A stretch of DNA of 64,000 bases from an uncultured beta proteobacterium (GTDB taxonomy: Bacteria; Pseudomonadota; Gammaproteobacteria; Burkholderiales; SG8-41), in contig CAVTHV010000016.1 of NCBI GenBank assembly GCA_963734595.1, forward strand, positions 84,519 to 148,518, in the 5' to 3' direction. Within the stretch, counting starts at the first letter, position 1, and each line of letters opens with the position of its first letter. Position numbers and translations under genes: made by a program. Positions 2,711 to 48,888 of this stretch are shown here, piece after piece. Under the pieces are notes generated by a model. It saw nothing but the letters and a program-made list of their open reading frames with translations. It was not told where the DNA came from and did no database searches.

Positions 2711-4129
<1,419 letters not shown>

Positions 4130-24013: not shown

Positions 24014-24460
24014 ATGATGTTCAAAAACATTCTGGTGCCTACCGATGGTTCGGCGTTATCGCACAAGGCCATCAAGAAAGCGGCGATATTCGCGAAAGAA
24101 ACCGGCGCCCGCATCACCGGTTTTCACGTCGCGCCGGCTTATCGCTTCAACGTCTATGCCGATTATGTCCCGCCCGACTTCATGTTGCCGCCGGAATTCG
24201 CCGCACACACCAAGAAGGTCGCGCAGCGGCATCTCGACGTCATCAAGAAAGCGGCGGCAGGCGCGGGCGTCTCTTGCGCGTGCTACTACGTGACGAGCGA
24301 TTTTCCGGCCGACGCGATCATCAAGGCGGCGAGGAAATACAAATGCGATGGCATTTTCATGGCCTCGCACGGCCGTACCGGGTTGTCACGCCTGATGCTC
24401 GGCAGCGAAACCACGAAGGTGCTCGCCCAGGCGCACATCCCGGTTGTGGTCTGCCGCTAA
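24014..24460 (+). CDS. Universal stress protein (UspA family)
   Basis: MFKNILVPTDGS at the N-terminus and GSHGRTGLSRLMLGSETTKVL near the C-terminus. Confidence 0.9.
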   Translation: MMFKNILVPTDGSALSHKAIKKAAIFAKETGARITGFHVAPAYRFNVYADYVPPDFMLPPEFAAHTKKVAQRHLDVIKKAAAGAGVSCACYYVTSDFPADAIIKAARKYKCDGIFMASHGRTGLSRLMLGSETTKVLAQAHIPVVVCR

Positions 24461-24535
24461 GCCGTCGCGGCGGGGTACCACGTTGTGTTATGCATCAGGC
24501 AATTTCTTAACTGTTCAACCATGCAGGAGTAAATC

Positions 24536-24835
24536 ATGAACGCACCGAGAGAACAGCTGGTAGCCGACCTCAAGATACTGATGGCCGATGTCGAGGATCT
24601 GGTGAAAGCGACGGCGACCCAGTCGGGCGACAAAATCGCGGAAGTGCGCGGCCGCATTCAGCAGGCCGCGGCCGACCTCAAACCCCGCCTGGCCCAGGCT
24701 CAGGTCATGTTGAAAGACAAGGCCAACGTAGCGGCGGCGACCACGGACGATTACGTGCACGACCACCCCTGGACCGCAATGGGCGTCTCGGCGGGAATCG
24801 GGCTGATCATCGGCCTGCTCATCGGCCGGCGCTGA
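24536..24835 (+). CDS. DUF883 (ElaB/YqjD/YgaM) family membrane-anchored protein
   Basis: Helical N-terminus, then the HPWTAMGVSAGIGLIIGLLIGRR tail anchor. Confidence 0.8.
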   Translation: MNAPREQLVADLKILMADVEDLVKATATQSGDKIAEVRGRIQQAAADLKPRLAQAQVMLKDKANVAAATTDDYVHDHPWTAMGVSAGIGLIIGLLIGRR

Positions 24836-28231: not shown

Positions 28232-31200
28232 TCAAGGCGCGCGCGAGGCGTGACGCTTCCAGTTGGCCGCGTAATAGAGCACGGGGATCACGACCAGCGT
28301 CAGGATGGTCGATACGAAGATGCCGAACAGCAGCGATACCGCAAGCCCGTTGAAAATCGGGTCGTCGAGGATGAACAGCGCGCCCACCATCGCGGCCAGC
28401 GCGGTCAGCACGATGGGCTTGGCGCGCGTGGCGCCGGCGCGCACGATCGCCGTTTCGAAGTCCGCGGCCCTGCGCCACCTCGAGATTGATGAAGTCGACC
28501 AGCAGGATCGAATTGCGCACGATGATGCCGGCCAGCGCGATCATGCCGATCATCGAGGTCGCGGTGAACTGCGCGCCGAGCAGCGCGTGGCCGGGCATCA
28601 CGCCGATCACCGTGAGCGGGATCGGCGCCATGATGATGAGCGGAGTCAGATAGGATTTGAATTGCGCCACCACCAGCAGGTAGATGAGGATCAGGCCGAC
28701 GGCGTAGGCGATCCCCATGTCGCGGAAGGTTTCGTACGTGACCTGCCATTCGCCGTCCCACTTCAGGCTGTAACCGGCATAACGGTCGGACGGCTGGCGG
28801 ATGAAATACTCGCCGAGCCTGCCGCCCTGCGCGAGCGCCACGCCCGCGGTCTTGGCGCGTATCTCGAACATGCCGTACAGCGGGCTGTCGAGCCGGCCCG
28901 CCATGTCGCCGACGACGTAGACCACCGGCAGCAGGTCCTTGTGATAAATCGTCTTATCTTGCAGCGTCGATACCGGCCGCACCAGTTCCGACAACGGAAT
29001 CAGCGCGCCCGAATCCGAGCGCACGGCAAGCTGCATCAGCCGTCCCATGCCGGACTGCTCCTGCGGGCGGCAGGCCGATCTGCACCGGCACTTCGAACTT
29101 GGCAGCTGCCGGTGTGCAGCGGCGTCACGTTGTCTCCCCCAAGCGCCATCCGCACCGTGGCGACGATATCGCGCTGCGCCACGCCCATCAGCGCCGCCTT
29201 GCTGCGATCGACCTGCAGCACCAGCTTCTCGGCGTCGGCTTCGCTGCTGTCATCGATGTCGACGATGTCGGCCGAGGCCGCAAACGCGCCGCGAATGCGC
29301 TTGGCGACCGCGATCTGGCCGGCGTAATCCGGGCCGTAGACTTCGGCGACGATCGGCGCGAGCACCGGCGGTCCCGGCGGCACCTCGACCACCTTGACGC
29401 GCGCATGCGCACGCTGCGCGATGCGTTCGATCTCGGGACGGGCCGCGCCGGCAATGGCATGGCTTTCCCGGCTGCGCTGATGCTTGTCGAGCAGATTCAC
29501 CTGGATATCGCCGAGTTCCGGGCCGCTGCGCAGATAATACTGGCGCACCAGGCCGTTGAAGTTGATCGGCGCCGCGGTGCCGGCGTAAGCCTGGTAATCG
29601 GTCACCTCCGGAATCTTCGCCACGTAGGCGCCGATCTCGCGCAGCACGCGCGCGGTTTCCTCGAGCGCGGTGCCCGCCGGCATGTCGACGACGATCTGGA
29701 ATTCGGATTTGTTGTCGAACGGCAGCATCTTGAGCACCACCAGCTTGAACCCGGCCAGCGAAACGGAAAACGCAATCGCCGCCAGCGTGGCGATCCACAG
29801 CAGCCGGCGTTTCGGCTTGCCCCGCGCGCCGCGCAAAAACGGCGTGAGCACCCGTTCAAACAGCCGCAACGACCGGCCTCCCGCTTCTTCGCCCTGATGC
29901 TGATGCGCCGGCTTGCCCAGCAGTTTCAGCGCCAGCCACGGCGTGATGACGAACGCCACCGCCAGGGAAATCAGCATGCCGATGCTGGCGTTGATCGGGA
30001 TCGGGCTCATGTACGGCCCCATCAATCCCGAGACGAACGCCATCGGCAACAGCGCCGCGATCACCGTGAACGTGGCAAGGATGGTCGGGCCGCCGACTTC
30101 GTCCACCGCATTGGGAATCACATCAGCGGGCGGCGCATCCGACAACGCGCGGTGCCGGTGGATGTTTTCCACCACCACGATCGCGTCGTCGACCAGGATG
30201 CCGATCGAGAAAATGAGCGCAAACAGCGACACGCGGTTGAGCGTAAAGCCCCAGGCCCAGGATGCGAACAGCGTCGCCGCCAGCGTGAATATCACCGCCA
30301 GGCCCACGATCAGCGCTTCGCGCCTGCCGAGCGCAGCCCATACCAGCGCGATCACGGACAAGGTGACGAAAATGAGTTTCTGGATCAGCTTCTGCGCCTT
30401 GGCGTTCGCGGTCTCGCCGTAGTTGCGGGACAGCGTGACGTTCACGCCCTCCGGAATCACGCTGCTTTTCAGCTCCCCGATACGCTGCAGCACCCGGTCG
30501 GCGACATCCACCGCGTTCTCTCCGGGCTTTTTCGAAACCGCGATGGTGACCGCTGGAAACTCGCCGCGAGGCATTGCCGCGCCTGCCGCCGCGCCATTGC
30601 CGTACCATACGTATTGCCGCGGCTGCTCGGGACCATCCTCGATGCGCGCAATGTCGGCAATCCGGATCGGCCGTCCCCCGGCGCGCCCGACGATCAGCCG
30701 CGCAACGTCTTCCGCCGTGCCAAGAAAACCGCCGGTTTCCACCCAGATGTCCCGGTTGTCGCGCGTGAGCTTGCCGGACGGCAGCGACGCATTCGCCGCG
30801 AGCAGGGCGCCCCGGATATCGCCTGCGGTGATCTTGTACGCGTTAAGACGGTCGACATCGAGCAATACGCGCACCACGTGTGCAGCGCCGCCGATCGTGG
30901 TGACGGTGCGCGTGCCCGCGACGCGCTTCAGCTCGACCTCGGCGGCATTGGCGACCTGTTTCAATTCGTAGGCGCCGCGCTGCGCGTCCTGGGTCCATAA
31001 CGTCAAGGTGACGATGGGCACATCGTCGATCCCGACCGGCTTGACGATGAACTCTCCCACGCCCAGTTCGGGCGGCACCCAGTCGCGGTTGGCGAAGAGC
31101 GTGTCGTAAAGCCGCACCAGCGCCTGGATCCGGTCCTCGCCGACTTTGTACTGCACGGTCAGGATCGCAAGGCCCGGCTTCGAAACCGAGTAAACGTGTT

Positions 31201-31441
31201 CGATGCCGGAGATTTGCGCCACCACCTGCTCGGCCGGCGTCGCCACCAGCGCCTCCACGTCGCGCGCCGAGGCTCCGGGAAAGGGAATGAACACGTTCGC
31301 CATCGTGACGTTGATCTGGGGCTCCTCCTCGCGCGGCGTCACCAGCACCGCGAAGAGGCCGAGCAGAAACGCCACCAGCGCAATCAGCGGGGTGAGTTGA
31401 GACTCGAGAAAAATCCGGGTGATGCGTCCTGAGATGCCCAT
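28232..31441 (-). CDS. RND efflux transporter permease (AcrB/CzcA superfamily), interrupted by three apparent +1 frameshifts
   Basis: Starts at MGISGRITRIFLESQLTP and contains ILVDDAIVVVENIHRH. Pieces 29036..31441, 28188..29048 and 28232..28444 join. Frame breaks lie near 29105, 29063 and 28465. Confidence 0.85.
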
Positions 31442-31470
31442 GAGAGTCGGAGAATCCGCGGGACGGCCGC

Positions 31471-32515
31471 TCAGCGGCGCTCGCCGCTGTCTTTCAGGGC
31501 GATTGCGGCTTTGACAGGATCGAGCGCCACTTTCTCGCCCGGCTGCAACCCGCCAAGCACCTCGACGCCGTCGGCGCCGAAATCCTGACCCGGCCGTATC
31601 TGGCGCAGATGGACCACATTGTCGGCGCCGATGACGTAAACGGCGGTCACCTCGGTGCGCCTGACGATGGCGCGTGCCGGGATCACCAGCCGCCGCGACT
31701 GGCCGAGGATAAAATGCACGCGCGCGAACATGCCGGGATAGCTGCCCGCGACATATTCCCGCAGCGCGAGCCGCACGCGCGTGGTGTGCGTCTGCGGGTC
31801 CGCGGTCGGCAGCACGGTGATCTCCCCCGCCTTCACGGTGCGGTTCTGCGCGGGAAACTCGATATCGGCACGCGCGCTCTTCCTGATCTGCGCCGAGCTT
31901 CAGTTGCGGCACGTCGGCGACCACCCGCATGTCCGTGGGATCGAAGCCGGTCATCAGCGGCTTGCCGGGCGTCACCAGTTCACCGAGCTCGACATGGCGC
32001 GCCGCGACGATGCCGCTATAGGGCGCGGTGACCGTGGCAAACCCTTTCACGGTCGCCGCCCGGCTCGAAATCGAGACGGCGGCCTGCAACTGCGCCTGCG
32101 CCGCCTGAAATTCGGACAATGCCCGGTCAAGCGCCGCCTTGCTCACAAAGCTCTGCTTGAACAGCTGCTGGGTGCGTTCGTAATTCGCCCTGGCGTTCTG
32201 CAGCGTGGCCTGCGCCTGCGCGATCTGCGCCTGCGAGCTGGCCAGCGCGTCGCTGACCTCGCGCTCGTCGATGCGCACGATGACCTCGCCTTTTTTGACG
32301 GCATCGCCGACGTCGAACCGCACTTCGACTATCCGTCCCGAAATCTGCGCCGAGACCGTCGCCTGCCTGACCGCCTCGACCATGCCTTCCGCCGTGTAGA
32401 CCTCGCCGACCTCGCGATACTCGACGGCCGCCGCCTCCAGCGGATCGGCGGCATGCGCCCATCCTGCAGCGAGAAGCAAAAGAAGGAATAAAGTTCTGGC
32501 GACCACGGTGAACAA
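31471..32515 (-). CDS. RND-associated membrane fusion protein (HlyD/biotinyl-lipoyl fold), with one apparent +1 frameshift
   Basis: Signal-like segment TLFLLLLLAAGWAHA, then SAQISGRIVEV, a coiled-coil region and TAPYSGIV. The C-terminal piece is ORF 31471..31836. The frame break lies near 31890. The start is uncertain (TTG 32515 or GTG 32506). Confidence 0.75.
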
Positions 32516-32626
32516 GGATACGATAGTGGGGAATATTCCGCTATACCAACCCGCCGGCCTGGGCTCGACGCTTCGATCAGGACCGGACGACTCGCCGGCC
32601 GCTGCCGGGGCCCGCGCCATGACTTC

Positions 32627-32989
32627 TTATTGCCCGTGTCCCGGCGTCCGGCGCCCGCCGCTCCTGGTTTCGCCGCGCCGCTTCCGGGAATAGTCTTCGA
32701 GCTGCCGCTTCGCGGCATCGAACGCATCGCGCAACGCGACGTAGATATCCTCGCTGTGCTCGTGGTTCACCACGATTTCCTTTCCCGGCACGGCGATGTC
32801 GAGACGCACCATGAACTGCCGCCCCTGGTGGTGATGCTTGTGCGGCGCCTCCGCGACGACGCGGCACGACGTGATCGGCGTGAAGAATTGCTCGAGCTTG
32901 GCGATTCCCTGCCGGATATGGTCATCCAATGCCGGGGAATGGTCCATGTCGCGCACAGTGATCTGAACCTGGTTTTGCATGATTTTCAC
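32627..32989 (-). CDS. HPF/RaiA family ribosome hibernation factor (short form)
   Basis: VQITVRDMDHSPALDDHIRQGIAKLEQFF and DIYVALRDAFDAAKRQLED, which are typical of the sigma54-modulation/RaiA fold. Confidence 0.75.
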   Translation of the reverse strand: MKIMQNQVQITVRDMDHSPALDDHIRQGIAKLEQFFTPITSCRVVAEAPHKHHHQGRQFMVRLDIAVPGKEIVVNHEHSEDIYVALRDAFDAAKRQLEDYSRKRRGETRSGGRRTPGHGQ

Positions 32990-33003
32990 CTTCGTTGTTG
33001 CAG

Positions 33004-33453
33004 TTACTTGCGGCTTTGCATTTCGTGCGTCTGTTCCTTGGACACGATGCGCGTCAAATCGGTGAGCTGCTCCGCCAGCACCTCGAGCAGGTCATCGATG
33101 GTGACGATGCCCACGAGCTGGCCGTCGCCGCCGACCACCGGCAGCCGGCGCACGCCCTTGAAGCGCATCACCTCCATGGTTTCGAGAACACCCTGGCTCT
33201 CCGGCACCGTGATCAGTTCCGAGCTCATGATGTCGCCCACGGTGATCACTTTCGGATCGAGTTCCATGGCGTCCACCTCCATGACGATGTCGCGATCGGT
33301 CAATATGCCGACCGGCATGCGTTTGCCGGCGACCTCGTCGACCGCGACCAGGCTGCCGACGTGATAATGCCGCATCAGCTTCGCTGCCGCCTGAACGGCG
33401 GTGTCGCGGTTGACGAATACCACTTCCCGGTTGCAGATCTCGCCGATGCTCAT
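33004..33453 (-). CDS. CBS domain pair protein
   Basis: RBS aaggag lies 6 nt before the ATG at 33453. Two CBS motifs (HHVGSLVAVD.., GILTDRDIV; VRRLPVVGGDGQLVGIVTIDDLL). Confidence 0.85.
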   Translation of the reverse strand: MSIGEICNREVVFVNRDTAVQAAAKLMRHYHVGSLVAVDEVAGKRMPVGILTDRDIVMEVDAMELDPKVITVGDIMSSELITVPESQGVLETMEVMRFKGVRRLPVVGGDGQLVGIVTIDDLLEVLAEQLTDLTRIVSKEQTHEMQSRK

Positions 33454-33545
33454 GGTCTTCTCCTTTGACATCTTCCCGCCGGTCTCAGCGCTATGCACTC
33501 TCGACATTCTCGGTACCATGATAGGAGCGCCCGCAAGCGCTCCCC

Positions 33546-33559
33546 TTGATCCAGATCAA
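33546..33559. promoter_or_regulatory. FNR/Dnr-type box TTGATccagATCAA
   Basis: Perfect consensus palindrome, extended by the flanking cccc/gggg, ~95 bp upstream of the CBS start. Confidence 0.6.
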
Positions 33560-33594
33560 AGGGGCGGTCAGGGTATGTCCGCAGAACCGGTGCG

Positions 33595-35032
33595 TTATCC
33601 CTTGATGCAAACCCTGGGACGGAGAAATGCGACGCGGCGCGCCAGACCGGCCTGTTCCGTCGCCTCCGCCACCAGGTCGACGTCCTTGTAGGCGCCGGGC
33701 GCTTCTTCCGCGGCGCCCCGCATCGAGCGCGTGCGGATCAGGATGCCGCGCGCCGCCAGCTCGTCGATGAGTTGCCGGCCGTTCCATTGTTTGAGCGCCT
33801 GGTGGCGGCTCATCGCGCGGCCCGCGCCGTGGCTCGCCGAACTGAACGCCCGCTGCTCGCTTTCGCTCGTCCCGCACAGCACATAGGAACCGGTGCCCAT
33901 GCTGCCGCCTATGATCACCGGCTGGCCCGTCGCGCGATAGCGCAGGGGGACCGCCGGATGTCCGGGCCCGAACGCGCGGGTTGCGCCTTTGCGATGCACG
34001 TAGAGCAGCATCTCCCGGCCGTCGACGATATGCCGCTCCACCTTGCACGTGTTGTGCGAAATGTCGAACAGGGTTTCGAGCATCGGCCTGCGGCAGGACC
34101 CGCCCGAATGCCTCGCGCGTCAGATGCGTGAGGATCTGCCGGTTGGCAAGCGCGCAGTTGATCGCCGCGTTCATGGCGCCGATATACTGCTGCCCTTCCG
34201 GCGAATTGATCGGCGCGCACGCGAGTTCGCGATCGGGCAGTTCGATGCCGAGCCGGGAAGCCGCCTTCGCCAGGCTCACGAGATAGTCGGTGCCGATCTG
34301 ATGGCCGAGGCCGCGCGAGCCGCAGTGGATCGAAACGACGACCTGCCCCTGCCGCAGGCCGAATGCCTCGGCCGCTGCGCGATCGTAGATGCGGTCGACC
34401 ACCTGCACTTCGAGATAGTGATTGCCGGAACCCAGAGTGCCCATCTCGCCGCGCTGCCGTTTCTTTGCCAGCAGCGACACGTTCGCCGGGACCGCGCCTT
34501 CGACGCAACCCTGTTCTTCGACGAACTCCAGATCGGCAGCCGTGCCGTAACCGCGGCGCACCGCCCACTGCGCGCCGCCGCGCAGCACCTCGTCGAGCTT
34601 CTCGGGCGTCAGCTTGAGATCGCCCTCTTCGCCGACGCCCGGCCGGTATGCTCCGAAACAGGACATCGGCGAGCGTGCGGCACATGCGGCACGATAGCGT
34701 CAAGCGTCGAGGTTGCTGCGCAGGCAGCGGATGCCGCAGGAAATGTCGAAACCGACACCGCCGGCGGAAATGATGCCGCCGCGCCCGGGATCGAACGCGG
34801 CCACGCCGCCGATCGGAAAACCGTAGCCCCAGTGCGCGTCGGGCATGGTCATCGCGCAGCCCACGAGGCCGGGCAGCCGCGCGACGTTGGTCAGTTGCTC
34901 GAGCACCTTGTCGTCCATGGTGGCGAGCAGTTCGGCATTGCCGTAAAGCCGGACTTCGCCGCGGCGCTCGCCCGTCGCGAGCGGCACCGTCCAGCACCAC
35001 GGATCGATCTGCTGCAGACTGGTCAGTTTCAT
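33595..35032 (-). CDS. rtcB: RNA ligase RtcB, interrupted by about four frame disruptions
   Basis: [48 protein letters not shown] and SHGAGR. Pieces 34700..35032, 33491..34666 and 33595..34083 join. Disruptions lie near 34700, 34673, 34640 and 34090. Confidence 0.9.
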
Positions 35033-35043
35033 GACCGGCTTCC

Positions 35044-35495
35044 TCAGACGTCGACGACACAGCGCGCTTCCCAGCCCGCCTGCGCCTGTTTCACGCGAAA
35101 GCATCGTCAATGTCGCTCCCTTGACCTCCACGCCGCGTTCGAGACCGTCACGCCAGTTTTCGCCTGCGGCCGATCCGCGCCATACCGCGCCATCCCGCTC
35201 GAGATGGAAGGTGGCAAACACCATGCCATTTTCGCGCGCGGCACCAAGCAAGGCGTTGAGCCATCGTCACCAGCGCGAGTTCGGTATCGGCCTCCTCGAA
35301 CTCGATCTTCACGCTGCGCGCCGCGCGCACTCCGGCAAGATCGGTCATGATCGAGAACATCGCCGCCGCAGCGGTCTCGAACGCCTGTTCAACAGAAGCA
35401 CCGCGCCCGATGATGCCGATATCCGCATCGTGCCCGAAATAGGCATCACGCTTGCCGGATTCCATGCTGGCGCCCTGATCTGTCGGGCTGGTCAT
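35044..35495 (-). CDS. Archease (RtcB activator), with two apparent +1 frameshifts
   Basis: [14 protein letters not shown] at the N-terminus. The corrected C-terminus reads [29 protein letters not shown]. Frame breaks lie near 35268 and 35094. The stop lies 11 nt before rtcB. Confidence 0.75.
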
Positions 35496-35568
35496 TTTCC
35501 GCCGTTGCGCCGCACATCAGGCGCGCGCACCATAATTGCTCATGTTAGCCATGCCGGCATCGGTTTGC

Positions 35569-35582
35569 TTGATCTAGGTCAA
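35569..35582. promoter_or_regulatory. FNR/Dnr-type box TTGATctagGTCAA
   Basis: Perfect palindrome ~80 bp upstream of the archease-rtcB operon, and also upstream of the divergent gene at 35652. Confidence 0.6.
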
Positions 35583-35651
35583 ACCAAGACCCTCGCTTTT
35601 TGGCTGTACTGTGAATGGCACGGAATCGATGTGTAAAAAACCGGGTGATCG

Positions 35652-35894
35652 ATGATTCTGATCAAAAACAAGCGGGTGCGCCGTGGCGTCGGCCTCGCGC
35701 TGGTGATCGCGGGAGGCCTGCTGATGTGGCTCGCGCCGGAGGAAGCCGGCGTGGGTGTCTTTTTGCTCGCCGCCGGCGTGTTGCTGGAGATCGTCGGCAT
35801 CGCGCTCGAGCGGCGTGACGACAGGTTGAACGTACGTCATGCCGTGGACTACGGCGTATTACCCCGCGGCGATGAAGCACCTGCCGCCCGCTGA
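35652..35894 (+). CDS. Small two-helix membrane protein (hypothetical)
   Basis: GVGLALVIAGGLLMWLAP and VGVFLLAAGVLLEIVGIAL. The 3' end overlaps the next ORF and is uncertain. Confidence 0.35.
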   Translation: MILIKNKRVRRGVGLALVIAGGLLMWLAPEEAGVGVFLLAAGVLLEIVGIALERRDDRLNVRHAVDYGVLPRGDEAPAAR

Positions 35895-36028
35895 CGCGCG
35901 AGAAAGCGATAGAAATCGCCAACGCCCTGCTTTCCGAGGGCTATCCTGAAGGCCAGGCCATCCGGATCGCGATCGCCCGCGCCCGGCAATGGGCGCAACG
36001 CCAGGCGCACGACACGGCAGACCGCTAA
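35839..36028 (+). CDS. DUF2188-like small protein, with one apparent +1 frameshift
   Basis: Manual translation gives MPWTTAYYPAAMKHLPPA, then after a +1 correction near 35895, REKAIEIANALLSEGYPEGQAIRIAIARARQWA. The 190-nt span (3n+1) fits a single-base insertion. Confidence 0.5.
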
Positions 36029-37755
36029 CGCCGCATCGTGCGCTCGAGCAGCGGTTTGAGCCTGGCCAGCGTGCGGGTGTTAAGCACATCGCCCGGCTCC
36101 AGCCAGCCGCGCCGCGCCTGCCCGATCGCGTATCCAAGATGGGCAAAATCGAGCGTGCTGTGGGCATCGGAATTGATGCACACCAGAACGCCTTCGTCCC
36201 GCGCCATCTGGCAATGGGTGTCGTGCAGATCGAGCCGGTCGGGCTGGGCGTTGAGTTCGAGAAAGCAGCCGCGGCTCTTCGCCTCGCGCACGATCCTGAG
36301 CATGTCGACGTCGTAGGGTTCGCGGCTGCCGATCAGGCGCCCGCTCGGATGGGCGAGCAGGGTGAAGCAGCGGTGATCCATCGCGCGCAGGATGCGCGCG
36401 GTCTGTTTGCGGCGCGGCAGATCGAAGGCGCTGTGCACCGCGCCGATCACGAGATCGAGCCGCGCCAGCACCGGATCCGGCAGGTCGAGGCTGCCGTCCT
36501 CGAGAATATCGACCTCGATGCCCTTGAGTATCGTGAAGCCGGCGAGTTCCTCATTCAGGCGGTCGATCTCGTCGATCTGCCTGGCGAGGCCCCGCGGGTC
36601 GAGGCCGTGCGCGACCGCGAGCCGGCGCGAATGCTCGGTAATCGCAATGTAGCCCAGGCCCAGCGCCTGTGCCGCCAGCGCCATCGCTTTCACCGTATCG
36701 TGCCCATCGGAAGCCTTGGTGTGCACATGCAGGTCACCCTTGAGATCGTTCCGCATGATGAGCTGCGGCAGCCGGCCGCCGCGCGCAGCCTCGATCTCGC
36801 CGCGATCTTCCCGGAGTTCCGGCGGGATGTAGGGCAGGCCCGCGGCCTTGAACACCGACTCCTCGGTGTCGCCGGCAATGCAGCGCTCGCCGCGGAACAC
36901 CCCGTATTCGTTGAGCTTCAAGCCGCGCTCCTGGGCGAGCCGGCGGATCGCGATGTTGTGCGCTTTCGAGCCGGTGAAATAATGCAGCGCCGCACCGTAG
37001 CTTGCGGCCGGCACCCGTCGCAGATCGACCTGGAGGCCCGACTTGAGCACCACGCTTGCGCGCGTCTCGCCTTGCGCAAGGATTTGCCTTACTTCGTCGT
37101 ACGCGCAGAATTCCGCCATCACCGGGCTGTCGCCGTCCGCGGTGACGAGAATGTCCAGATCCCCCACGGTTTCCCGCATGCGGCGGAAGCTGCCCGCCAC
37201 GACCGCCTGCTTCACTCCGGGCACTTTTTCCAGGTAGGAAACCAGCGCGTCGGCGTATTGGGTGGCGACGGCGAGCTGGAAACGCCGGCTGGTGTCCGTC
37301 TGCGCTTCCAGCGATTGCAGAATGTGTTGTTCGGTTTTCTCGCCGAAACCAGGCACATCACGGATCCGGCCGGCGCGCGCCGCCTGGCGCAAATCGTCGA
37401 TCGTCTGCACCCGCAGTTCGTCATAAAGCAGCTTGACGCGCTTCGGCCCCAGCCCGGGGATCCTGAGCAACTCGGTGATCGCCGACGGAAACTCCTTGCG
37501 CAACCGCTGCAGCAGCGCGGACGTACCGGTGGCCGCTATCTCATGGATCTTGGCGGCAAGATCGGTGCCGATGCCGGGGAGTTTCGGCAGCTCGCCGCCC
37601 TTGTCGAACAGGCTCTTGATGTCCCGGCCGAACTCGGCGACGCTGCGCGCGGCATTGCGATAGGCGCGGATCCGGAACGGGTTTTCCCCCCGGATCTCCA
37701 GAAGGTCCGCGATCTCCTCGAAGATCGCGGCGATATCGGCGTTGTGCAGCGGCAC
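36025..37755 (-). CDS. polX: Family X DNA polymerase with a C-terminal PHP phosphoesterase domain (PolX)
   Basis: Intact 576 aa. HhH motifs (LPGIGTDLAAKI, IPGLGPKR), the Pol beta-like core (GSFRRMRETVGDLDILV), and the PHP motif DLHVHTKASDG. Confidence 0.9.
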   Translation of the reverse strand: MPLHNADIAAIFEEIADLLEIRGENPFRIRAYRNAARSVAEFGRDIKSLFDKGGELPKLPGIGTDLAAKIHEIAATGTSALLQRLRKEFPSAITELLRIPGLGPKRVKLLYDELRVQTIDDLRQAARAGRIRDVPGFGEKTEQHILQSLEAQTDTSRRFQLAVATQYADALVSYLEKVPGVKQAVVAGSFRRMRETVGDLDILVTADGDSPVMAEFCAYDEVRQILAQGETRASVVLKSGLQVDLRRVPAASYGAALHYFTGSKAHNIAIRRLAQERGLKLNEYGVFRGERCIAGDTEESVFKAAGLPYIPPELREDRGEIEAARGGRLPQLIMRNDLKGDLHVHTKASDGHDTVKAMALAAQALGLGYIAITEHSRRLAVAHGLDPRGLARQIDEIDRLNEELAGFTILKGIEVDILEDGSLDLPDPVLARLDLVIGAVHSAFDLPRRKQTARILRAMDHRCFTLLAHPSGRLIGSREPYDVDMLRIVREAKSRGCFLELNAQPDRLDLHDTHCQMARDEGVLVCINSDAHSTLDFAHLGYAIGQARRGWLEPGDVLNTRTLARLKPLLERTMRR

Positions 37756-37764
37756 TGCGGCCTT

Positions 37765-38160
37765 CTACAGAGTTGGCGTTGCTCCCCGGGAATGCGTCTG
37801 CTCGTGCCGTTGCTGGCAGCGGATGCAGCGCTTGGCGGTGGCATAAACCGCCAGCCGTTCATATCCGATGTCCGTGCCGCACTCGATGCACGCCCCGAAA
37901 CTGCCGTCGCGCATGCGCTGCAACGCGGCTTCGACGTCGCGCAACTCCATCACGTGGCGGTCGGCGAGCGCGGCATCGATATCGACGAGCATATCGGCCA
38001 CCGCGTCGTCGCCCGAATCGGCCACGGCCCCGGCGAGATCCTTGTGGTGTTGCTCATCGGACCGGATCAGCACTTCGCGAATCTCATCCTTCAGTTCGCG
38101 ACTGCGCAATACAAGGCGGGTCTTGAGATCGTCAAGCTGGAGATCGGTCAGGTCGCTCAT
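37765..38160 (-). CDS. DksA/TraR family C4-type zinc-finger protein
   Basis: 131 aa starting at MSDLTDL, a coiled-coil region, then CIECGTDI...CIRCQ. Confidence 0.8.
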   Translation of the reverse strand: MSDLTDLQLDDLKTRLVLRSRELKDEIREVLIRSDEQHHKDLAGAVADSGDDAVADMLVDIDAALADRHVMELRDVEAALQRMRDGSFGACIECGTDIGYERLAVYATAKRCIRCQQRHEQTHSRGATPTL

Positions 38161-38260
38161 CGCTGCGCTCCTTGGGGTCGGGCATTTTCCGGCGCCACGC
38201 TGCGATCCATGTCGGCGGAATCGGTTTATATTCATAATATTCGACGGTGACGCCCGCCCC

Positions 38261-38274
38261 TTGACCCAGATCAA
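38261..38274. promoter_or_regulatory. FNR/Dnr-type box TTGACccagATCAA
   Basis: Perfect palindrome in the divergent region between the dksA-like/polX genes (-) and the APH/AAA gene (+). Confidence 0.6.
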
Positions 38275-38348
38275 CAAAATGACCCCCGGCATGCGGTTTA
38301 CTGGGAACGTCGCGGCTTCGCATCGGCGGCAACTTCCCAATCGACGTC

Positions 38349-39955
38349 TTGACGATGAATAACACCGAAAATTCCGATCGTCACGCAAGACTGATCGCGG
38401 CGCTGCGCGATCCCGGCTGCTACCCGCATCCGGTGGGCGAGGTGGAGGTTCTCGAAACGCATATTTCCTGGGTCCTGCTGACCGGCCGCTATGCCTACAA
38501 GATCAAGAAACCGGTGAACCTGGGTTTCCTCGATTTCTCCACGCTCGCGCAGCGCGACTTCTGCTGCCGCGAAGAACTGCGATTGAACCGCCGGCTCGCT
38601 CCCGGTCTTTACCTGGATGTCGTCGGCATCACCGGCAGCCCGGACCACCCGCGCGTGGGCGGCGACGGCGAAGCCATCGAATATGCGGTAAAAATGCTGC
38701 AGTTCGGGCAGGACCAGCTGGCCAGCCGCCTGCTCCGCAGCGGCAATCTCACAGCGCAGCACATCGAGCAGCTCGCCGGAACAATCGCAACGTTCCACCA
38801 GCAGGCAGCGGCGGCCAAAGGACGGCAGCCGCTTCGGCTCGCCGGCGACGCTGAAGGCACAGGTCCTGCAGAATTTCGATCAGATCGCGGCGCTGCCCGG
38901 CGCGGAGAGCGAGCGCACCATGCTCGGCGATTTGCGCGAACTGGAGCGAGCGCGAACTCTCCGCCGGTGAGTCACGGTTCGGCGCGCGCCAGGCCGCGGG
39001 CCGCGTGCGCGAGGGCCACGGCGACCTCCATCTCGGCAATATTGCGCTGGTCGACGGCGAGATCACGCCCTTCGACTGCATCGAATTCAGCGCCGACCTG
39101 CGCTGGAACGACGTCGCCAGCGAAACCGCTTTTCTGGTCATGGATCTCATCGACCGTGGCCGGCGGGACTTCGCGTTTCTGTTTCTCAGCACTTATCTCG
39201 AGCTCACCGGCGACTACGACGCGGTCGCGGTGCTGCGCTTTTACCTGGTTTATCGGGCCATGGTGCGCGCCAAGGTCCATTGCCTGCGCGCGCATCAGGC
39301 GCACATCGACGGGGCCGAACGTGCGCGTCTGCTCGATGCCTTCCGCGACTACCTGAAACTCGCCGCCGGCTTCACCCGGCCTTGCCGGCCGTCACTGATC
39401 GCGATGCACGGCATGTCCGGATCGGGGAAAACGGTGGTGTCCCATGCGCTGGTGCAGGCGGCGGGTGCGCTGCGCATCCGGTCCGACGTCGAACGCAAGC
39501 GTCTGCATGACATGACCATGCTCGAGCGGCCCGCAAGCGGCGTGGCCGCCGGCATCTACGCCGGGGAAGTCACGAAGCGCGTATACCAACACCTTGCGCA
39601 GCTCGCGCGGAAAATCATCGCGGCCGGCTACAGCGTGATCCTCGACGCCGCCTTCCTCCGGCGCTGGCAGCGCGACCTCGTGCGGGATCTCGCGCGCGAG
39701 CTCGCCGTACCTTTTGTCATCGCCTCGCTGCAAGCACCGGAAACCGTACTGCAAGCGCGCATCCTGCGCCGCAGCGGCGCGGGCACCGACGCGTCGGACG
39801 CCGATCTTGCCGTTCTGGCGCATCAGCTGGCAACCGAGGACCCGATCGCGGAAGACGAGCGCGCCGGCACCATCACGCTCGACGCCGCGCTGCCACCCGA
39901 CGCGCTCGCGGCAACCGCCGAATGGCGGGCACTGCTCGCAAGAGCTTCTTCTTAA
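38349..39955 (+). CDS. Bifunctional aminoglycoside-phosphotransferase-like / P-loop ATPase protein (Rv2004c-like), with two apparent +1 frameshifts
   Basis: N-terminus ETHISWVLLTGRYAYKIKKPV, APH catalytic motif HGDLHLGNI, and P-loop GMSGSGKT. Frame breaks lie near 38820 and 38955. Confidence 0.75.
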
Positions 39956-40584
39956 TCCGCTTCGCGCTCGATGCTGCAGCAATGCGCCGGCGCCTCTGCC
40001 ACGGTATGCACGGTCAGCACCGATCCCGTCACCGGGTTCGGGCGGAAGGTGGTGCAGCCCTTCAGCCCCAGCGCATACGCTTCCTCGTAGAGTGAGCAGA
40101 ACACTTCGAAGTCCAGGTCTTCAGGGACGTTGATGGTCTTGGAAATCGCGTTGTCGACATGCGGTTGCAGCGCCGCCTGCATCGCGAGATGGGCCCGCGG
40201 CTCGATGTCCGCCGCCGCGACGAACGCCGGCGGCAGCGCGGTCGCGCCGGACCCGCGATACAGCGCACACGCGTAATCGGCGACCTCGAAGGACTCGATC
40301 CCGCCGTCGGCAAGCCGCACGCTGCGCGAGCAGTCTGCCGCATAGACCGGCTCGAGCCCGCTCGAGACGTTGCCGGCAAGCAGGCTGATCGTGCCGGCCG
40401 GAGCGATCGCGGTCAGATGGCTGTTGCGGATGCCGTCACGGCGGATCGCATCCCGGATGTCCTGCGGCAGCGCACTCACGAACTCTCCGGCGAGATATTG
40501 TTCCGTTTCAAACAGCGGAAAGGCGCCCTTCTCGCGGGCCAGCGCCGACGAGGCGCGATACGCCGCATGGCAGATGGTGCGCAT
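39952..40584 (-). pseudogene. nrdJ: C-terminal ~210-220 aa of a class II (B12-dependent) ribonucleotide reductase, with no N-terminal part upstream (orphan NrdJb-like fragment)
   Basis: AYRASSALAREKGAFPLF, NSHLTAIAPAGTISL, ISKTINVP and GLKGCTTFRP. The frame opens just after a TGA near 40620, and no RNR-like sequence follows upstream. Confidence 0.7.
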
Positions 40585-40754
40585 GATGCGGGCGGCAATC
40601 TCGAGCGAATGCGATCGCTTTCACGCCATTCCCGGACCGGGCGGGACAAGCATCATGGGCAGTCGGAGACCGCGCCGACCGCGACCAACCTCCGGGCGAT
40701 AACAGTATGCCGTTGTTTTTATTATCAATATTTCGGCGTGGCTGCGCTCGGGGA

Positions 40755-41288
40755 TCAGGGCATGCCGCGGCGCTGCCTCATGCCCCGGCCAAGAACGGCG
40801 ATCTCTTCCGGCGTCAGAATTTTCTCTGCGAGCGGCAACATATTGGCTTCTTCGCCCACGACGTGCACCTGATACATTCCACAAAACCGGCCCACTTCCA
40901 GTTCGTCCAACGGCGCATGTTCCCCGTGCGCGATGAGCTCGAGGGTTTCCCGGAGTTTGAGCCACGCCTCTTCCAGTTCCTGGTGTTCGCGATGCAGCTT
41001 GTCGACCAGCAGCGCGAGGCGCTCCGCATTCTCTCCGCGCGCCGCTGCGATCATCAGCGGAAACAGGTCTTCCTCTTCATCCTCGCGGTGATGCCGTCCC
41101 GCGCTGTCGAAATAGCGCATCACGTTGGAAGCGGCTTGTTGCGCCTGTGCATCGCAGCCATGGACCGGCAGATGCGCGGCAAGCTTGCGCAGCGTCTCGC
41201 ACTGCGCTCTGATGCGGTCGTGGCAGGCGGTGAGCATCTGCAATGGATGATCAAAATCTGCAACGGCCTGCCTTATTTGTGCAGCCAT
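40755..41288 (-). CDS. Hemerythrin HHE cation-binding domain protein
   Basis: DHPLQMLTACHDRI, HHREDEEEDLFP and HREHQELE motifs. Confidence 0.75.
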   Translation of the reverse strand: MAAQIRQAVADFDHPLQMLTACHDRIRAQCETLRKLAAHLPVHGCDAQAQQAASNVMRYFDSAGRHHREDEEEDLFPLMIAAARGENAERLALLVDKLHREHQELEEAWLKLRETLELIAHGEHAPLDELEVGRFCGMYQVHVVGEEANMLPLAEKILTPEEIAVLGRGMRQRRGMP

Positions 41289-44692: not shown

Positions 44693-45382
44693 ATGTCGGC
44701 CAAACCGATCAGGATCCAGGACTTTCTCACCAATCTTCCGCTGTTCCGGCAGCTCGGCAGCGGCGATATCGACCGCATCGCGGAAGGCGCAACCGAAATC
44801 GATGCGCCGCGCGGCAGCATCCTCTTCCGGCGCGGCGACCCGTGCAACGGTTTTCATATCGTGATCTACGGCCAGGTCAAGCTTGCGCTGGAGGCGCCGC
44901 ATGGCCATGAAAGGGTCGTCGAGCTCGCAGGCCCCGGGAACAGTTTCGGTGAAGCGATGATGTTCCTGGAAAAACCCTACATGGTGACCGCCGAAACCCT
45001 CGCCGATACCAAGCTCCTGCACGTCGCGAGGGAAATGGTGTTCGCCGAAGTCGACTGCGATCCGCGCTTCGCGCGCCGCATGATCGCCGGGTTGAGCCAT
45101 CGCCTGCATCATCTGATTTCCGACTTCGAAATGGTCACGCTGCATTCGGGCACGCAGCGCGTGATCGGCTACCTGCTGCGCGATGCCACCGAAGACAGCC
45201 GCATATCGGAGCTGCAGGTGACGCTGCCGGCAAAAAAAAGCATCATCGCCTCGCACCTGAACCTCACGCCGGAACATTTCTCGCGCATCCTGCATGAACT
45301 GAGCGTGGCGGGCCTGATCAAAGTGTCGGGCCGCAACGTGGTCATCCTCGATATCGGGCGGCTGCGCACCCACGGCGGCTGA
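44693..45382 (+). CDS. Crp/Fnr family regulator lacking the FNR Cys cluster (Dnr/NnrR-like)
   Basis: cNMP-like domain and an HTH with the FNR-type recognition residues (IASHLNLTPEHFSRILHEL). No N-terminal C-X2-C-X5-C cluster. Confidence 0.8.
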   Translation: MSAKPIRIQDFLTNLPLFRQLGSGDIDRIAEGATEIDAPRGSILFRRGDPCNGFHIVIYGQVKLALEAPHGHERVVELAGPGNSFGEAMMFLEKPYMVTAETLADTKLLHVAREMVFAEVDCDPRFARRMIAGLSHRLHHLISDFEMVTLHSGTQRVIGYLLRDATEDSRISELQVTLPAKKSIIASHLNLTPEHFSRILHELSVAGLIKVSGRNVVILDIGRLRTHGG

Positions 45383-46973: not shown

Positions 46974-47987
46974 ATGCCGCCAAACCCTCGCATCGAACTG
47001 GTGTGCCCTGCCGGCAGCCTGACCGCGCTCAAGGCCGCCGTCGACAACGGCGCGGACTGCGTCTACATCGGCCTGCGTGACAACACCAACGCGCGCAACT
47101 TCGCCGGGCTCAACTTCGACCGCGCGGCCGCGGACGCGGGCGTGCGCTACGCCCATGCCCGCGGCGCCAAAGTCCTGCTCGCGATCAACACCTACCCGCA
47201 GCCCGATGGCTGGGAGCGCTGGACCCGCGCGGTGGATACCGCCGCCGCCGTCGGCATCGACGCGGTGATCGTCGCCGATCCCGGTCTGATGGAATATGCG
47301 GCACGCACCTACCCCCAGCTGCGGCTGCATCTCTCGGTGCAGGGCTCGGCCACCAATTACGAGGCGATCAATTTCTATCACCGCCATTTCAACGTGCAGC
47401 GCGCGGTCCTGCCGCGCGTGCTGTCGCTGGCGCAGGTGAAAACCCTTGCCGCGAACACGCCGGTCGAAATCGAGGTCTTCGGCTTCGGCAGCCTGTGCGT
47501 GATGGTCGAGGGCCGCTGCGCGCTGTCCTCCTACGCCACCGGCGATTCGCCCAACACCACCGGCGTGTGCTCGCCGGCGAAGGCGGTGCGCTGGCAGGAC
47601 ACGGCACAGGGCCTCGAGTCGCGCCTCAACGGCGTGCTGATCGACCGCTATGCCCAGGGCGAGAACGCCGCGTACCCGACGCTGTGCAAGGGCCGCTTCG
47701 AAGTCGGCGGCGACACCTATTACGCGATCGAGGAACCGGCGAGCCTCAACACGCTGGAACTGCTTCCCCAGCTGCTGGAAATCGGCGTCGCCGCGATCAA
47801 GATCGAAGGCCGCCAGCGCAGCCCGGCCTATGTGGCCCAGGTTACAAAGGTATGGCGGCAGGCGATCGACCGCTGCTGCGAAGAAGCCGCGCGCTATGCC
47901 GTGCGCCCGGAATGGGACCTCGCGTTGCGCCGCGTTTCCGAGGGCCAGAGCCAGACGCTCGGCGCCTATCACCGCCCGTGGAAATGA
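46974..47987 (+). CDS. ubiU: U32-family O2-independent ubiquinone hydroxylase subunit UbiU
   Basis: Collinear resemblance to E. coli YhbU as I recall it: [49 protein letters not shown]. Confidence 0.85.
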
Positions 47988-47988
47988 G

Positions 47989-48882: not shown

Positions 48883-48888
48883 TCAATC

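Follow-up and report, generated by a model that had tools for sequence, protein, structure and literature searches.

Closest described systems

A review of the DosR regulon of Mycobacterium tuberculosis lists among its members the HPF-type protein RafH (Rv0079), the CBS-pair protein Rv2626c, Rv2630-Rv2631 (the latter an RtcB), Rv2004c, Usps, the class II ribonucleotide reductase (RNR) Rv0570 and Rv1737c, the product of narK2. The low-oxygen-activated (lxa) locus of the betaproteobacterium Burkholderia cenocepacia J2315 is a run of contiguous genes with a common TGA-N6-TCA motif of the Anr/Fnr-like kind (Sass et al. 2013, PMC3721108). It is required for anoxic persistence, and its authors stated that it overlaps with the DosR regulon, so that the general idea of an Anr/Fnr-motif low-oxygen locus resembling this regulon is already published (PMC3721108). 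RtcB, archease and CBS proteins are not mentioned in the main text of that paper (PMC3721108), nor does the string "ribosom" occur in it. The gene content of lxa (many Usps, an alpha-crystallin, a nitroreductase, SulP, a PfkB/ribokinase, a class II RNR, a CtpF-type ATPase and PHA genes) is largely complementary to that of the locus described here, which, unlike lxa, lies in a nitrate respirer among respiratory FNR targets.

In Pseudomonas aeruginosa, the FNR-type box of the Anr/Dnr system drives cbb3 oxidase, hemN, nrd and nar genes; to our knowledge, RtcB/archease, PolX, a CBS-HPF operon and an APH/P-loop protein have not been described as members of that regulon. Survival of this species without oxygen requires its Usps, which are under the control of Anr (Trunk et al. 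2010, as cited in PMC3721108). The RNA ligase RtcB, encoded in the rtcBA system of E. coli and Salmonella under RtcR and sigma-54, is thought to mend damaged RNA during stress, and no bacterial report linking RtcB with FNR, oxygen or anoxia was found in the literature searched. In the archaeal hibernation factors HibA/AHA, a CBS module and an HPF/RaiA domain are joined in one protein, and the CBS module of HibA binds AMP better than ATP (PMC13324472, PMC12934967).

FNR-type boxes in a respiratory gene island

The window, a 64,000-nt stretch from the metagenome-assembled genome of an uncultured soil or water betaproteobacterium, contains 15 matches to the FNR-type box against 0.79 expected, a number reached by none of 100 window-wide shuffles. 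An FNR/Anr orthologue (16420-17172, plus strand) with an N-terminal C-X2-C-X5-C motif, an internal cysteine and an ETISR recognition helix is likely, from these features, to be the oxygen sensor for the boxes. A Dnr/NnrR-like Crp/Fnr paralogue (44693-45382, plus strand) lacks the cysteine cluster but retains the E--SR helix (EHFSR), and a box precedes its gene at 44606, so that the window combines a true FNR with a Cys-less paralogue much as P. aeruginosa combines Anr with Dnr. Downstream of a perfect box at 23456 lie genes for a Usp (24014-24460, plus strand) and a DUF883 ElaB/YqjD-family protein (24533-24835, plus strand). The Usp, RNR and narK/narG genes that the original prediction had noted elsewhere in the window were all found, as this Usp, NrdD/NrdG and a class II RNR remnant, narGHJI (56.1-62.7 kb) and an MFS narK-like gene; hemerythrins are encoded as well. 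The 32.6-40 kb interval, set among cbb3 oxidase, hemN, nrdDG, ubiUV and narGHJI genes, is probably part of a ~40-kb FNR/Anr-type regulon island of a facultatively anaerobic, nitrate-respiring Burkholderiales-type bacterium.

All four boxes predicted in the interval are present, and three of them show class II geometry, in that the strand of the flanking gene carries a TAnnAT hexamer 21-22 nt after the box; these three face CBS-HPF, archease-RtcB and the divergent pair of DksA-like-PolX and an APH-like/P-loop kinase. The perfect box TTGATCCAGATCAA (33546-33559) is situated between the stop codon of rtcB and the start of CBS; its centre is 99 nt from the CBS ATG, and on the minus strand a TATCAT hexamer follows after 22 nt. 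Archease (minus strand) and a small membrane ORF (plus strand) diverge from a promoter region that holds TTGATCTAGGTCAA (35569-35582, one mismatch), with TAACAT 21 nt downstream, again on the minus strand. The third, TTGACCCAGATCAA (38261-38274, one mismatch), occupies the divergent region between dksA-like-polX and the APH/P-loop gene, with TATTAT 21 nt downstream towards the former and TTTACT 22 nt downstream towards the latter. Of the -10 hexamers, those facing the small ORF and the APH/P-loop gene are weaker than the others, and the divergent boxes may serve only one flanking gene. The fourth match, ATGATTCTGATCAA (35652-35665, one mismatch), is weak and overlaps the start codon of the small ORF; since no -10 hexamer was found at class II spacing and the relatives L002 and L005 have no counterpart, it is probably not an activating site.

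The window also lacks rtcR, as had been predicted: the one sigma-54 activator that it encodes (2714-4396) lies 30 kb away and is a response regulator of the NtrC type. No sigma-54 activator adjoins RtcB in 80 related loci, and searches of the present locus for a sigma-54 promoter and for a DosR box found neither.

Genes behind the boxes

Pfam and NCBIfam matches bear out the proposed families, namely HPF, CBS pair, RtcB, archease and APH-like plus P-loop protein. The HPF gene (32627-32980, minus strand) encodes a short HPF/YfiA-family ribosome hibernation factor of 117 aa (PF02482, 73 bits; TIGR00741, 47.4 bits with a cut-off of 40.9), whose best PDB match is HPF chain 9t0z_9 (E=3e-26). It starts 23 nt downstream of the gene for a stand-alone CBS-pair protein (33004-33453, minus strand; 149 aa; two PF00571 stretches), with which it is probably co-transcribed. 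The CBS protein aligns over its full length with Rv2626c (PDB 1Y5H/1XKF; E=5.6e-13) and has the identical architecture. By gene adjacency, the pair may be likened to HibA/AHA, where CBS module and HPF/RaiA domain also form one functional unit; here the genes are separate and there are two CBS domains, versus four in the archaeal factors.

Archease, the RtcB activator (35044-35495, minus strand; PF01951, 114 bits), is the first gene of an archease-rtcB operon. RtcB (33595-35032, minus strand) has 477 aa after frame correction (PF01139, 560 bits) and belongs to the long archaeal/Thermus/human, archease-dependent type (P. horikoshii RtcB, E=2e-152). It therefore differs from the rtcBA system in its type and its pairing with archease, and further in that RtcR, the sigma-54 promoter and RtcA are all missing and the promoter is FNR class II-like. 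Divergent from archease, and sharing its FNR box, is a conserved gene for a small two-TM protein (35652-35894, plus strand; a weak two-TM Pfam match, 57-63 aa in relatives), found by tblastn next to archease in 10 of 80 RtcB loci and also in L001, L002, L005 and L006.

The interval holds two further genes that had been missing from the earlier list. PolX, an intact DNA polymerase/3'-5' exonuclease of 576 aa (36025-37755, minus strand; NF006375, 532 bits with a cut-off of 426), has HHH_8, thumb and PHP domains. The gene preceding it in a dksA-like-polX operon encodes a DksA/TraR-family C4 zinc-finger protein of 131 aa (37765-38160, minus strand; PF01258, 46 bits), which matches DksA-type NCBIfam models below their cut-offs.

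Profile matches, motifs and predicted structure identify the product of 38355-39955 (plus strand) as a two-domain kinase-like protein: HGDLHLGN is invariant in its N-terminal APH/choline-kinase fold, and the AAA_33 P-loop kinase domain at its C-terminus contains GxSGSGK. Its AlphaFold model (pLDDT 91) matches choline kinase/APH and gluconokinase/PNK structures in Foldseek, and its putative equivalence to Rv2004c is one of architecture. Next to it lies the 3' remnant of a class II RNR (39955-40755, minus strand), corresponding to residues 352-614 of the intact L002 enzyme.

In the assembly, single-base indels interrupt the RtcB, archease and APH/P-loop genes. Three 1-nt insertions in rtcB (~34635-34705) are common to the window and the independent contig L001, and two more rtcB indels (33950, 34081) occur in the window only. 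The same holds for two 1-nt insertions each in archease (35095, 35265) and the APH/P-loop gene (38823, 38939); in L001 both genes are intact, the latter with 532 aa. Compared with L001, the window has 30 random single-base deletions in 1.8 kb, a density typical of long-read consensus error, so most of the frameshifts are assembly noise.

Conservation in relatives

Co-occurrence of these genes with FNR boxes extends to related genomes, in which both position and spacing of the boxes are conserved. L002, L003 and L005, with protein identities of 66-76%, carry boxes at the same three positions. Among anchored orthologous archease promoters, 11 of 15 keep both the box and, 21 nt from it in every case, a TAnnAT hexamer; the spacer in between is not conserved. 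The DksA-like gene is preceded by a box in all 10 loci, the APH/P-loop gene in 9 of 16, archease in 19 of 79 and CBS in 6 of 20, the box before CBS being kept in L002, L009, L010, L024 and L079. The CBS-HPF adjacency and order recur in L017 and L028. The cultured strain C. metallidurans CH34 has a perfect box at its APH/P-loop homologue, with TACGCT 21 nt further on. The FNR wiring is clade-specific, because the same gene cluster in Nitrosomonadaceae mostly lacks canonical boxes; Nitrosomonas and gammaproteobacterial versions have hybrid half-sites upstream of archease (TTGAT-N4-CGCAA / TTGCG-N4-ATCAA).

A predicted anoxic maintenance programme

Judged from sequence, the locus most probably represents FNR/Anr-type wiring of maintenance units that are activated in anoxia from three promoters (probability about 0.7). 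We infer that, as oxygen falls, [4Fe-4S] FNR (16420-17172) would bind TTGAT-N4-ATCAA boxes centred ~41.5 bp upstream of three predicted transcription starts, possibly with a contribution from the Dnr-like paralogue encoded downstream. From the first promoter, HPF would block and preserve ribosomes and the CBS pair would likely sense adenylates or energy state. Archease-RtcB, from the second, would reseal RNA with 3'-phosphate or 2',3'-cyclic-phosphate and 5'-OH ends. The divergent third unit would supply transcription tuning and gap-filling DNA repair through DksA-like-PolX in one arm, and would hold the APH-like/P-loop double kinase in the other. Together with the Usp and the ElaB/YqjD-type protein behind the other box, these units would keep the cell's machinery intact during non-growth.

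Relation to the DosR regulon and alternative readings

The locus shares with the DosR regulon a CBS pair, an HPF-type protein, Usps, a class II RNR, a narK-type transporter, RtcB with an upstream partner gene (archease here, for which Rv2630 is the putative counterpart), and the tie of the gene set to a low-oxygen regulator. The parallel is broader than originally claimed, since related loci add PncB (Rv0573c family), a PRT and dienelactone hydrolase (DLH; Rv0571c family) and an intact class II RNR. The two differ in that an FNR-family box takes the place of a DosR-type box here and that the HPF is of the short, single-domain form; PolX, PncA and a DksA-like protein are, as far as we know, not DosR-regulon members. 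Families shared with so large a part of the M. tuberculosis dormancy programme suggest a common way of anoxic survival.

Around RtcB in the best 80 loci, PRT, PolX, archease, RtcB, Usp, HPF, PncA, PncB, class II RNR, CBS and APH/P-loop genes recur as a proteobacterial cluster of varying gene order, seen in Burkholderiales, Nitrosomonadaceae, Acidithiobacillus and gammaproteobacterial MAGs. A cluster that recurs in this way and seems to be mobile may reflect shared ancestry or horizontal transfer just as well as the convergence originally proposed. It is a serious possibility, at somewhat under even odds, that a linked set (archease-RtcB, HPF, Usp, PncA/PncB, PRT/DLH, class II RNR, CBS and APH/P-loop) descended from a common source or moved between phyla and was later placed under the host's hypoxia regulator, FNR family in Proteobacteria or DosR in mycobacteria. 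Besides the varied order, this reading draws on RtcB homologues of 60-77% identity in Thermomicrobiales, Vicinamibacteria, Terriglobia and Pirellulales MAGs, on the two physical blocks (Rv0569-Rv0574c and Rv2623-Rv2631) that hold the same families in M. tuberculosis, on a Rhodococcus plasmid where an APH/P-loop homologue lies beside PfkB-type kinase, CBS and Usp genes, and on an earlier proposal of horizontal origin for DosR-regulon genes (Becq 2007, as cited in PMC5309233). However, archaeal CBS pairs are at least as close to the CBS protein as Rv2626c is, no Mycobacterium locus is among the best 80 RtcB loci, and actinobacterial APH/P-loop homologues are only ~30-32% identical. Mere coincidence of ubiquitous stress families, with boxes that serve respiratory neighbours or small ORFs, is highly improbable: CBS pairs, Usps and HPF are indeed very widespread, divergent regions hold two of the three boxes and one of the four claimed is probably spurious, but class II-spaced -10 hexamers point to CBS-HPF, archease-rtcB and dksA-like-polX, box and spacing are conserved before archease in many loci, and rare families (archease/RtcB, the APH and P-loop fusion, PncB, PRT/DLH, class II RNR) join the common ones across the 80 loci.

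Activation of the three units by FNR in anoxia has a competitor in the signal itself, which could be NO instead of O2 because FNR and Dnr/NnrR-type regulators recognise indistinguishable boxes. Use of the boxes mainly by the Dnr/NnrR-like regulator, in an NO response during denitrification with repair of nitrosative damage to RNA, DNA and ribosomes, would suit the Cys-less E--SR paralogue with its own box in the manner of an Anr-to-Dnr cascade, the presence of narGHJI and hemerythrins, and the hybrid half-sites before archease. We consider it unlikely, since the box sequences suit either regulator, the window encodes a true FNR as well and most neighbouring targets (cbb3 oxidase, hemN, nrdDG, ubiUV) are classical O2/FNR targets; the two signals are also not mutually exclusive. 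Decay of the module, leaving an rtcB pseudogene, an RNR remnant and relic boxes, seems quite unlikely. The three rtcB insertions create an in-frame TGA and are common to two independent assemblies. This lineage may therefore have an inactive RtcB, and of the class II RNR both window and L001 retain just the last 263 codons. Against decay, the remaining frameshifts are confined to the window, where single-base deletions of the long-read error type are dense elsewhere too. Once the three bases are taken out, the rtcB sequence is again fully conserved, and its translation has every catalytic motif checked by eye against what we take to be the P. horikoshii active-site residues; in four relatives, rtcB is intact.

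Gene content of the interval

The interval from 32627 to 39955 holds a compact set of predicted maintenance genes. On the minus strand, a hibernation promoting factor gene (HPF; 32627-32980) and a CBS-pair gene (33004-33453) are followed by genes for RtcB (33595-35032) and archease (35044-35495), and then by PolX (36025-37755) and a DksA/TraR-like protein (37765-38160), two genes of the interval that the original prediction had passed over. The plus strand carries a small ORF with two transmembrane segments (35652-35894) and a two-domain kinase-like protein, the APH/P-loop protein (38355-39955). The families first assigned to these genes hold in Pfam and NCBIfam profile matches.

The HPF gene product is a predicted member of the HPF/YfiA/RaiA hibernation-factor family, with an S30AE domain that scores over the curated cut-offs of both PF02482 (73.1 versus 23.7) and TIGR00741 (47.4 versus 40.9). 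The CBS protein, in the size class of about 140 aa, consists of two CBS domains alone and aligns along its whole length with Rv2626c, residues 5-128 pairing with residues 12-131 of 1Y5H (E=5.6e-13). Because archaeal CBS pairs match it as well as, or better than, Rv2626c, this relation holds at family level only. RtcB (PF01139, 560 bits; P. horikoshii RtcB, E=2e-152) belongs to the long archaeal/Thermus/human type, which fits a predicted pairing with archease (PF01951, 114 bits), whose gene lies immediately upstream of rtcB.

In the APH/P-loop protein, the N-terminal domain is kinase-like and contains an invariant HGDLHLGN loop, and the C-terminal domain contains a GxSGSGK P-loop (AAA_33, 121 bits). 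Foldseek searches with its AlphaFold model (pLDDT 91) relate domain 1 to choline kinase, homoserine kinase and APH folds, and domain 2 to gluconokinase and polynucleotide-kinase (PNK) folds. A sequence search of the PDB matched the P-loop half alone, to the gluconokinase-type chain 4eun ('thermoresistant glucokinase'), and homologues carry the RefSeq-style product name 'bifunctional aminoglycoside phosphotransferase/ATP-binding protein'.

Of a class II ribonucleotide reductase (RNR) gene, only the final 263 codons are left, at 39955-40755, abutting a hemerythrin gene. The RNR gene is intact (614 aa) at the same position in the related locus L002, and the window copy is a genuine 3' remnant. 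A 183-bp stretch at 35821-36003 is missing from L001, a near-identical contig of an independent assembly, and contains a frameshifted small ORF from 35849; the corresponding place in L002 holds a second small ORF of 64 aa with a weak DUF2188 match. A megablast search of 12 kb of the window against plasmids returned RND-pump fragments and nothing else.

Integrity of the reading frames

In the window, frameshifts interrupt the genes for RtcB and archease, the APH/P-loop gene, narG and several others. Relative to L001, which is 97-99% identical, the differences are single-base indels outside homopolymers, and the archease and APH/P-loop genes are intact in L001. A pseudogene-rich symbiont was rejected on the intact state of most genes in this 98%-identical contig, together with the random placement of single-base indels, and the frameshifts other than a triple insertion in rtcB are long-read consensus noise. 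That exception lies at ~34635-34705, where a 68-nt stretch holds three 1-nt insertions that introduce an in-frame TGA. It is common to the window and the independent contig L001 and absent in four other relatives (L002, L005, L007 and L009), and once the three bases are removed the sequence is again fully conserved. It stems either from inactivation of the gene in the recent past or from a systematic error of long-read sequencing.

At 47100-48900, 30 single-base deletions relative to L001 fall within 1.8 kb and break both peptidase-U32 (UbiU/UbiV-like) genes, which looks like a low-coverage long-read consensus region. An apparent fusion protein of 1194 aa at 29036-32620, joining a membrane-fusion protein to an RND pump, is an indel artefact: in L001 and L002 the membrane-fusion protein (344-367 aa) and the pump (~1070 aa) are separate genes.

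Predicted FNR-dependent promoters

Four FNR-type boxes had been proposed for the interval, at 33546, 35569, 35652 and 38261. Those at 33546, 35569 and 38261 are credible, with 0, 1 and 1 mismatches, respectively, to TTGAT-N4-ATCAA. In class II geometry the box centre lies near -41.5, so that a -10 hexamer starts 21-23 nt past the box. Hexamers at this spacing are found towards CBS-HPF (TATCAT, 22 nt after box 33546), towards archease-rtcB (TAACAT, 21 nt after box 35569) and towards dksA-like-polX (TATTAT, 21 nt after box 38261), and weaker ones towards the small ORF (TGTACT, 22 nt after box 35569) and towards the APH/P-loop gene (TTTACT, 22 nt after box 38261). The site at 35652 is discounted because it has no -10 hexamer at class II spacing, overlaps a start codon and does not occur in relatives, leaving three credible sites rather than four. 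These three carry the sequence features of predicted FNR/Anr class II promoters.

The wider setting is that of a classical FNR/Anr island, as predicted from its boxes and gene content. In the window, with a G+C content of ~64%, TTGAT-N4-ATCAA is matched 15 times at no more than one mismatch, against 0.79 expected from dinucleotide-preserving shuffles (n=100; 0/100 reach 15), and FNR-type boxes are spread over 5.9-47 kb. Pfam scans of the window and the gene table of the near-identical contig place the focal genes among multihaem cytochromes, a HemN-like radical-SAM enzyme, an FNR gene, ccoGH and ccoNOQP (cbb3 oxidase), a Usp, a DUF883 (ElaB/YqjD-family) protein, an RND pump, hemerythrin, nrdD/nrdG, a second Crp/Fnr gene, two peptidase-U32 genes (UbiU/UbiV-like), narGHJI and an MFS narK-like gene. 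The DUF883 protein (24533-24835; ElaB/YqjD/YgaM-family, ribosome-associated in E. coli) is encoded immediately 3' of the Usp gene, and both lie downstream of a perfect FNR box at 23456.

The two Crp/Fnr proteins differ in their sensory residues. The protein at 16420-17172 has Crp/HTH_Crp_2/cNMP domains, a C-X2-C-X5-C cluster (VCATCSLHELC), an internal cysteine and an ETISR recognition helix, and is therefore a genuine FNR/Anr. The protein at 44693-45382, which has a box upstream of its own gene, lacks the cysteine cluster yet retains E--SR, and is therefore Dnr/NnrR-like.

RtcB is normally placed under RtcR and sigma-54, and the reported absence of rtcR is borne out. A tblastn search with an NtrC-type central domain finds no sigma-54 activator close to RtcB, whether in the window or in 80 related loci; the window encodes only one activator of this kind, an NtrC-type response regulator (2714-4396). 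No -24/-12 promoter is present on the coding strand at 35496-35651, and window-wide matches number 60 versus 84, below chance. Among the neighbours in L001, L002 and L005, where archease precedes rtcB, no RtcA cyclase is encoded. The archease-rtcB locus lacks the divergent rtcR, the sigma-54 promoter and the rtcA gene of the RtcR/sigma-54 rtcBA operon. It also differs from the DosR regulon, whose operator (GGGACT-N2-AGTCCC core, 2 mismatches) gives 2 window matches versus 1.76 expected and 0 in the interval. With both scans at or below chance, sigma-54 and DosR operators were rejected as alternative control. Regulation of bacterial RtcB appears to reach beyond RtcR/sigma-54.

Conservation of the cluster and its boxes

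In a scan of 185,579 species genomes, the best 80 RtcB loci (60-87% identity) belong mostly to Burkholderiales, beta- and gammaproteobacterial MAGs, Nitrosomonas, Nitrosospira, Nitrosovibrio and Acidithiobacillus. Proteins of the window and of relatives were mapped within 10 kb of RtcB, and the resulting counts are minima because many of the 80 loci are short: at least 75 of the 80 contain archease, at least 34 HPF, at least 30 each Usp and NAPRTase (PncB), at least 29 isochorismatase (PncA), at least 28 a phosphoribosyltransferase, at least 20 PolX, at least 19 a CBS pair, at least 12 the APH/P-loop protein, and at least 5 each class II RNR and dienelactone hydrolase.

Contigs with an APH/P-loop homologue of 66-76% identity (L002, L003/L004 and L005/L006) have boxes at the same three positions. 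Counting boxes within 220 nt upstream, the DksA-like gene is preceded by one in 10/10 loci, the APH/P-loop gene in 9/16, archease in 19/79 and CBS in 6/20. When archease promoters are anchored on the box, TAnnAT lies exactly 21 nt downstream in 11/15, and the spacer sequence is unconserved. Canonical FNR boxes are concentrated in a Burkholderiales-type clade, and most Nitrosomonadaceae are without them. That these families are linked in many Proteobacteria and FNR-boxed in one clade argues for a predicted joint action, which would preserve ribosomes, RNA, DNA and NAD pools while cells are short of oxygen and not growing. The predictions, for non-pathogenic hosts, are that FNR would induce these genes under anoxia, that deletion mutants would no longer survive anoxia, and that the CBS protein would cooperate with HPF at the ribosome.

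A cultured organism shows the same arrangement for one gene. On the C. metallidurans CH34 megaplasmid (L088:8932-8945; NC_007974.2 ~1,819,726), a perfect FNR box, TTGATGCGAATCAA, and TACGCT at 21 nt beyond it lie directly upstream of an APH/P-loop homologue that is 44.5% identical.

A hybrid half-site, TTGAT-N4-CGCAA (or its complement TTGCG-N4-ATCAA), is conserved upstream of archease in place of the canonical box. It occurs ~46-57 nt upstream of archease in Nitrosomonas and related loci (L039, L041, L043, L045, L056, L057, L062, L063, L066, L068 and L080), with TACAAT ~40 nt downstream in Nitrosomonas, and also in gammaproteobacterial MAGs (L016, L020, L025 and L026). Its conserved sequence may mark a site for a different Crp/Fnr-family regulator.

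In L005 (933-5322), an operon downstream of rtcB and behind a perfect FNR box encodes isochorismatase (PncA), NAPRTase (PncB), a phosphoribosyltransferase, dienelactone hydrolase and a PRPP-synthetase-like protein; salvage of NAD and nucleotides, too, is FNR-boxed in this relative. L007 (CAYIRZ010000069.1), labelled as a Streptomycetaceae MAG, carries the betaproteobacterial cluster with the same FNR boxes. Its RtcB is 87% identical to that of the window, and its archease and RtcB are 95% and 94% identical to those of L002; it is probably a mis-binned contig.

Relation to the DosR regulon

Among M. tuberculosis proteins, Rv2004c is the putative counterpart with an APH plus P-loop architecture, and Rv2630 the putative archease-like one. 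The Rv2004c-type arrangement, an APH/kinase-like fold with a C-terminal P-loop kinase, is present in the 38355-39955 protein. The proposed link to Rv2004c itself draws on indirect evidence: the phosphotransferase activity reported for Rv2004c, the product name common to homologues, and the gene context of a homologue on a Rhodococcus plasmid. According to a review, the DosR blocks are Rv0079-0081, Rv0569-0574c, Rv2003c-2007c and Rv2623-2631, and include the ribosome factor RafH (Rv0079), RtcB (Rv2631), a B12-dependent RNR (Rv0570), a phosphoribosyltransferase (Rv0571c) and a nicotinamide-recycling protein (Rv0573c), with NarK2 (Rv1737c) and several Usps also in the regulon. The proposed parallel with the DosR regulon is real at family level and is wider than first stated, related loci adding PncB, phosphoribosyltransferase plus dienelactone hydrolase, and an intact class II RNR. 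The finding itself is real, and the original prediction was partly right in its interpretation, which had invoked convergence.

The shared maintenance families may reflect either convergence or exchange and common origin. The cluster recurs, shuffled in order, across lineages, and the same families form physical blocks in M. tuberculosis, both of which favour exchange; against a recent transfer, actinobacterial proteins show only modest identity, and the best RtcB loci include none from Mycobacterium. A tentative reading, given a probability of about one in three, is that Proteobacteria and Actinomycetota have exchanged a coherent gene set for 'anoxic maintenance' that spans phyla, each host wiring it to its local low-oxygen regulator. 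In such a set, HPF, a CBS-pair energy sensor and ElaB/Balon-type proteins would preserve ribosomes; archease-RtcB, PolX and the APH/P-loop double kinase would repair RNA and DNA ends; and PncA/PncB, PRT/DLH and class II RNR would salvage NAD and nucleotides, with Usp in addition. The wiring would run through FNR/Dnr-family boxes in Burkholderiales-type bacteria and Cupriavidus, and through DosR in mycobacteria. If an exchanged set of this kind exists, the half of the DosR regulon that is still poorly understood (Rv0079, Rv0570-0573c, Rv2004c, Rv2626c and Rv2630-2631) would be one functional module, whose biochemistry would be open to study in tractable proteobacteria.

In Rhodococcus sp. DK17 (plasmid pDK1, L087), an APH/P-loop homologue with 32% identity over 86% of the query adjoins a PfkB-type kinase, PEP synthase, a CBS-domain protein and a Usp, a gene context that by analogy resembles DosR-regulon blocks.

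Relation to other low-oxygen and hibernation systems

The closest published system is the low-oxygen-activated (lxa) locus of B. cenocepacia J2315, which has an Anr/Fnr-like motif and is required for anoxic persistence, and whose authors had already noted the overlap with the DosR regulon (PMC3721108). Multiple Usps, alpha-crystallin, nitroreductase, PHA genes and PfkB make up the lxa content, whereas the set of the window is largely complementary: among the window ORFs scanned, one Usp was found, and Hsp20, nitroreductase, PHA and PfkB genes were not. On this gene content, the window locus appears analogous to lxa, not orthologous. Because lxa covers the general concept, the concept is not new, and the advance lies in the gene set and its breadth. 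A search of the available literature found no bacterial report tying RtcB to FNR, Anr, oxygen or anoxia. The value of the locus is that it links RtcB/archease, PolX, HPF/CBS and a Rv2004c-like kinase to oxygen sensing across phyla, which bears on what RtcB repairs in bacteria and on the roles of Rv2004c, Rv2626c, Rv2630/31 and Rv0571c.

In the archaeal hibernation factors HibA/AHA, a CBS module and an HPF domain are fused (PMC13324472, PMC12934967). They are single polypeptides, whereas the CBS and HPF genes of the window are separate and adjacent, with a 23-nt gap, an arrangement suggestive of a split analogue of HibA/AHA. CBS-HPF adjacency was rejected as a general rule, being seen only in the species of the window and in two further loci. 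In a betaproteobacterial MAG (L017:13027-13521), a Host_attach/baeRF-family (release-factor-like) protein follows CBS-HPF and is reminiscent, by analogy, of Balon-type hibernation factors. In Nitrosospira briensis Nsp8 (L067:12027-12599), HPF is fused to a cold-shock domain (S30AE plus CSD, 190 aa), forming a chimeric hibernation factor.
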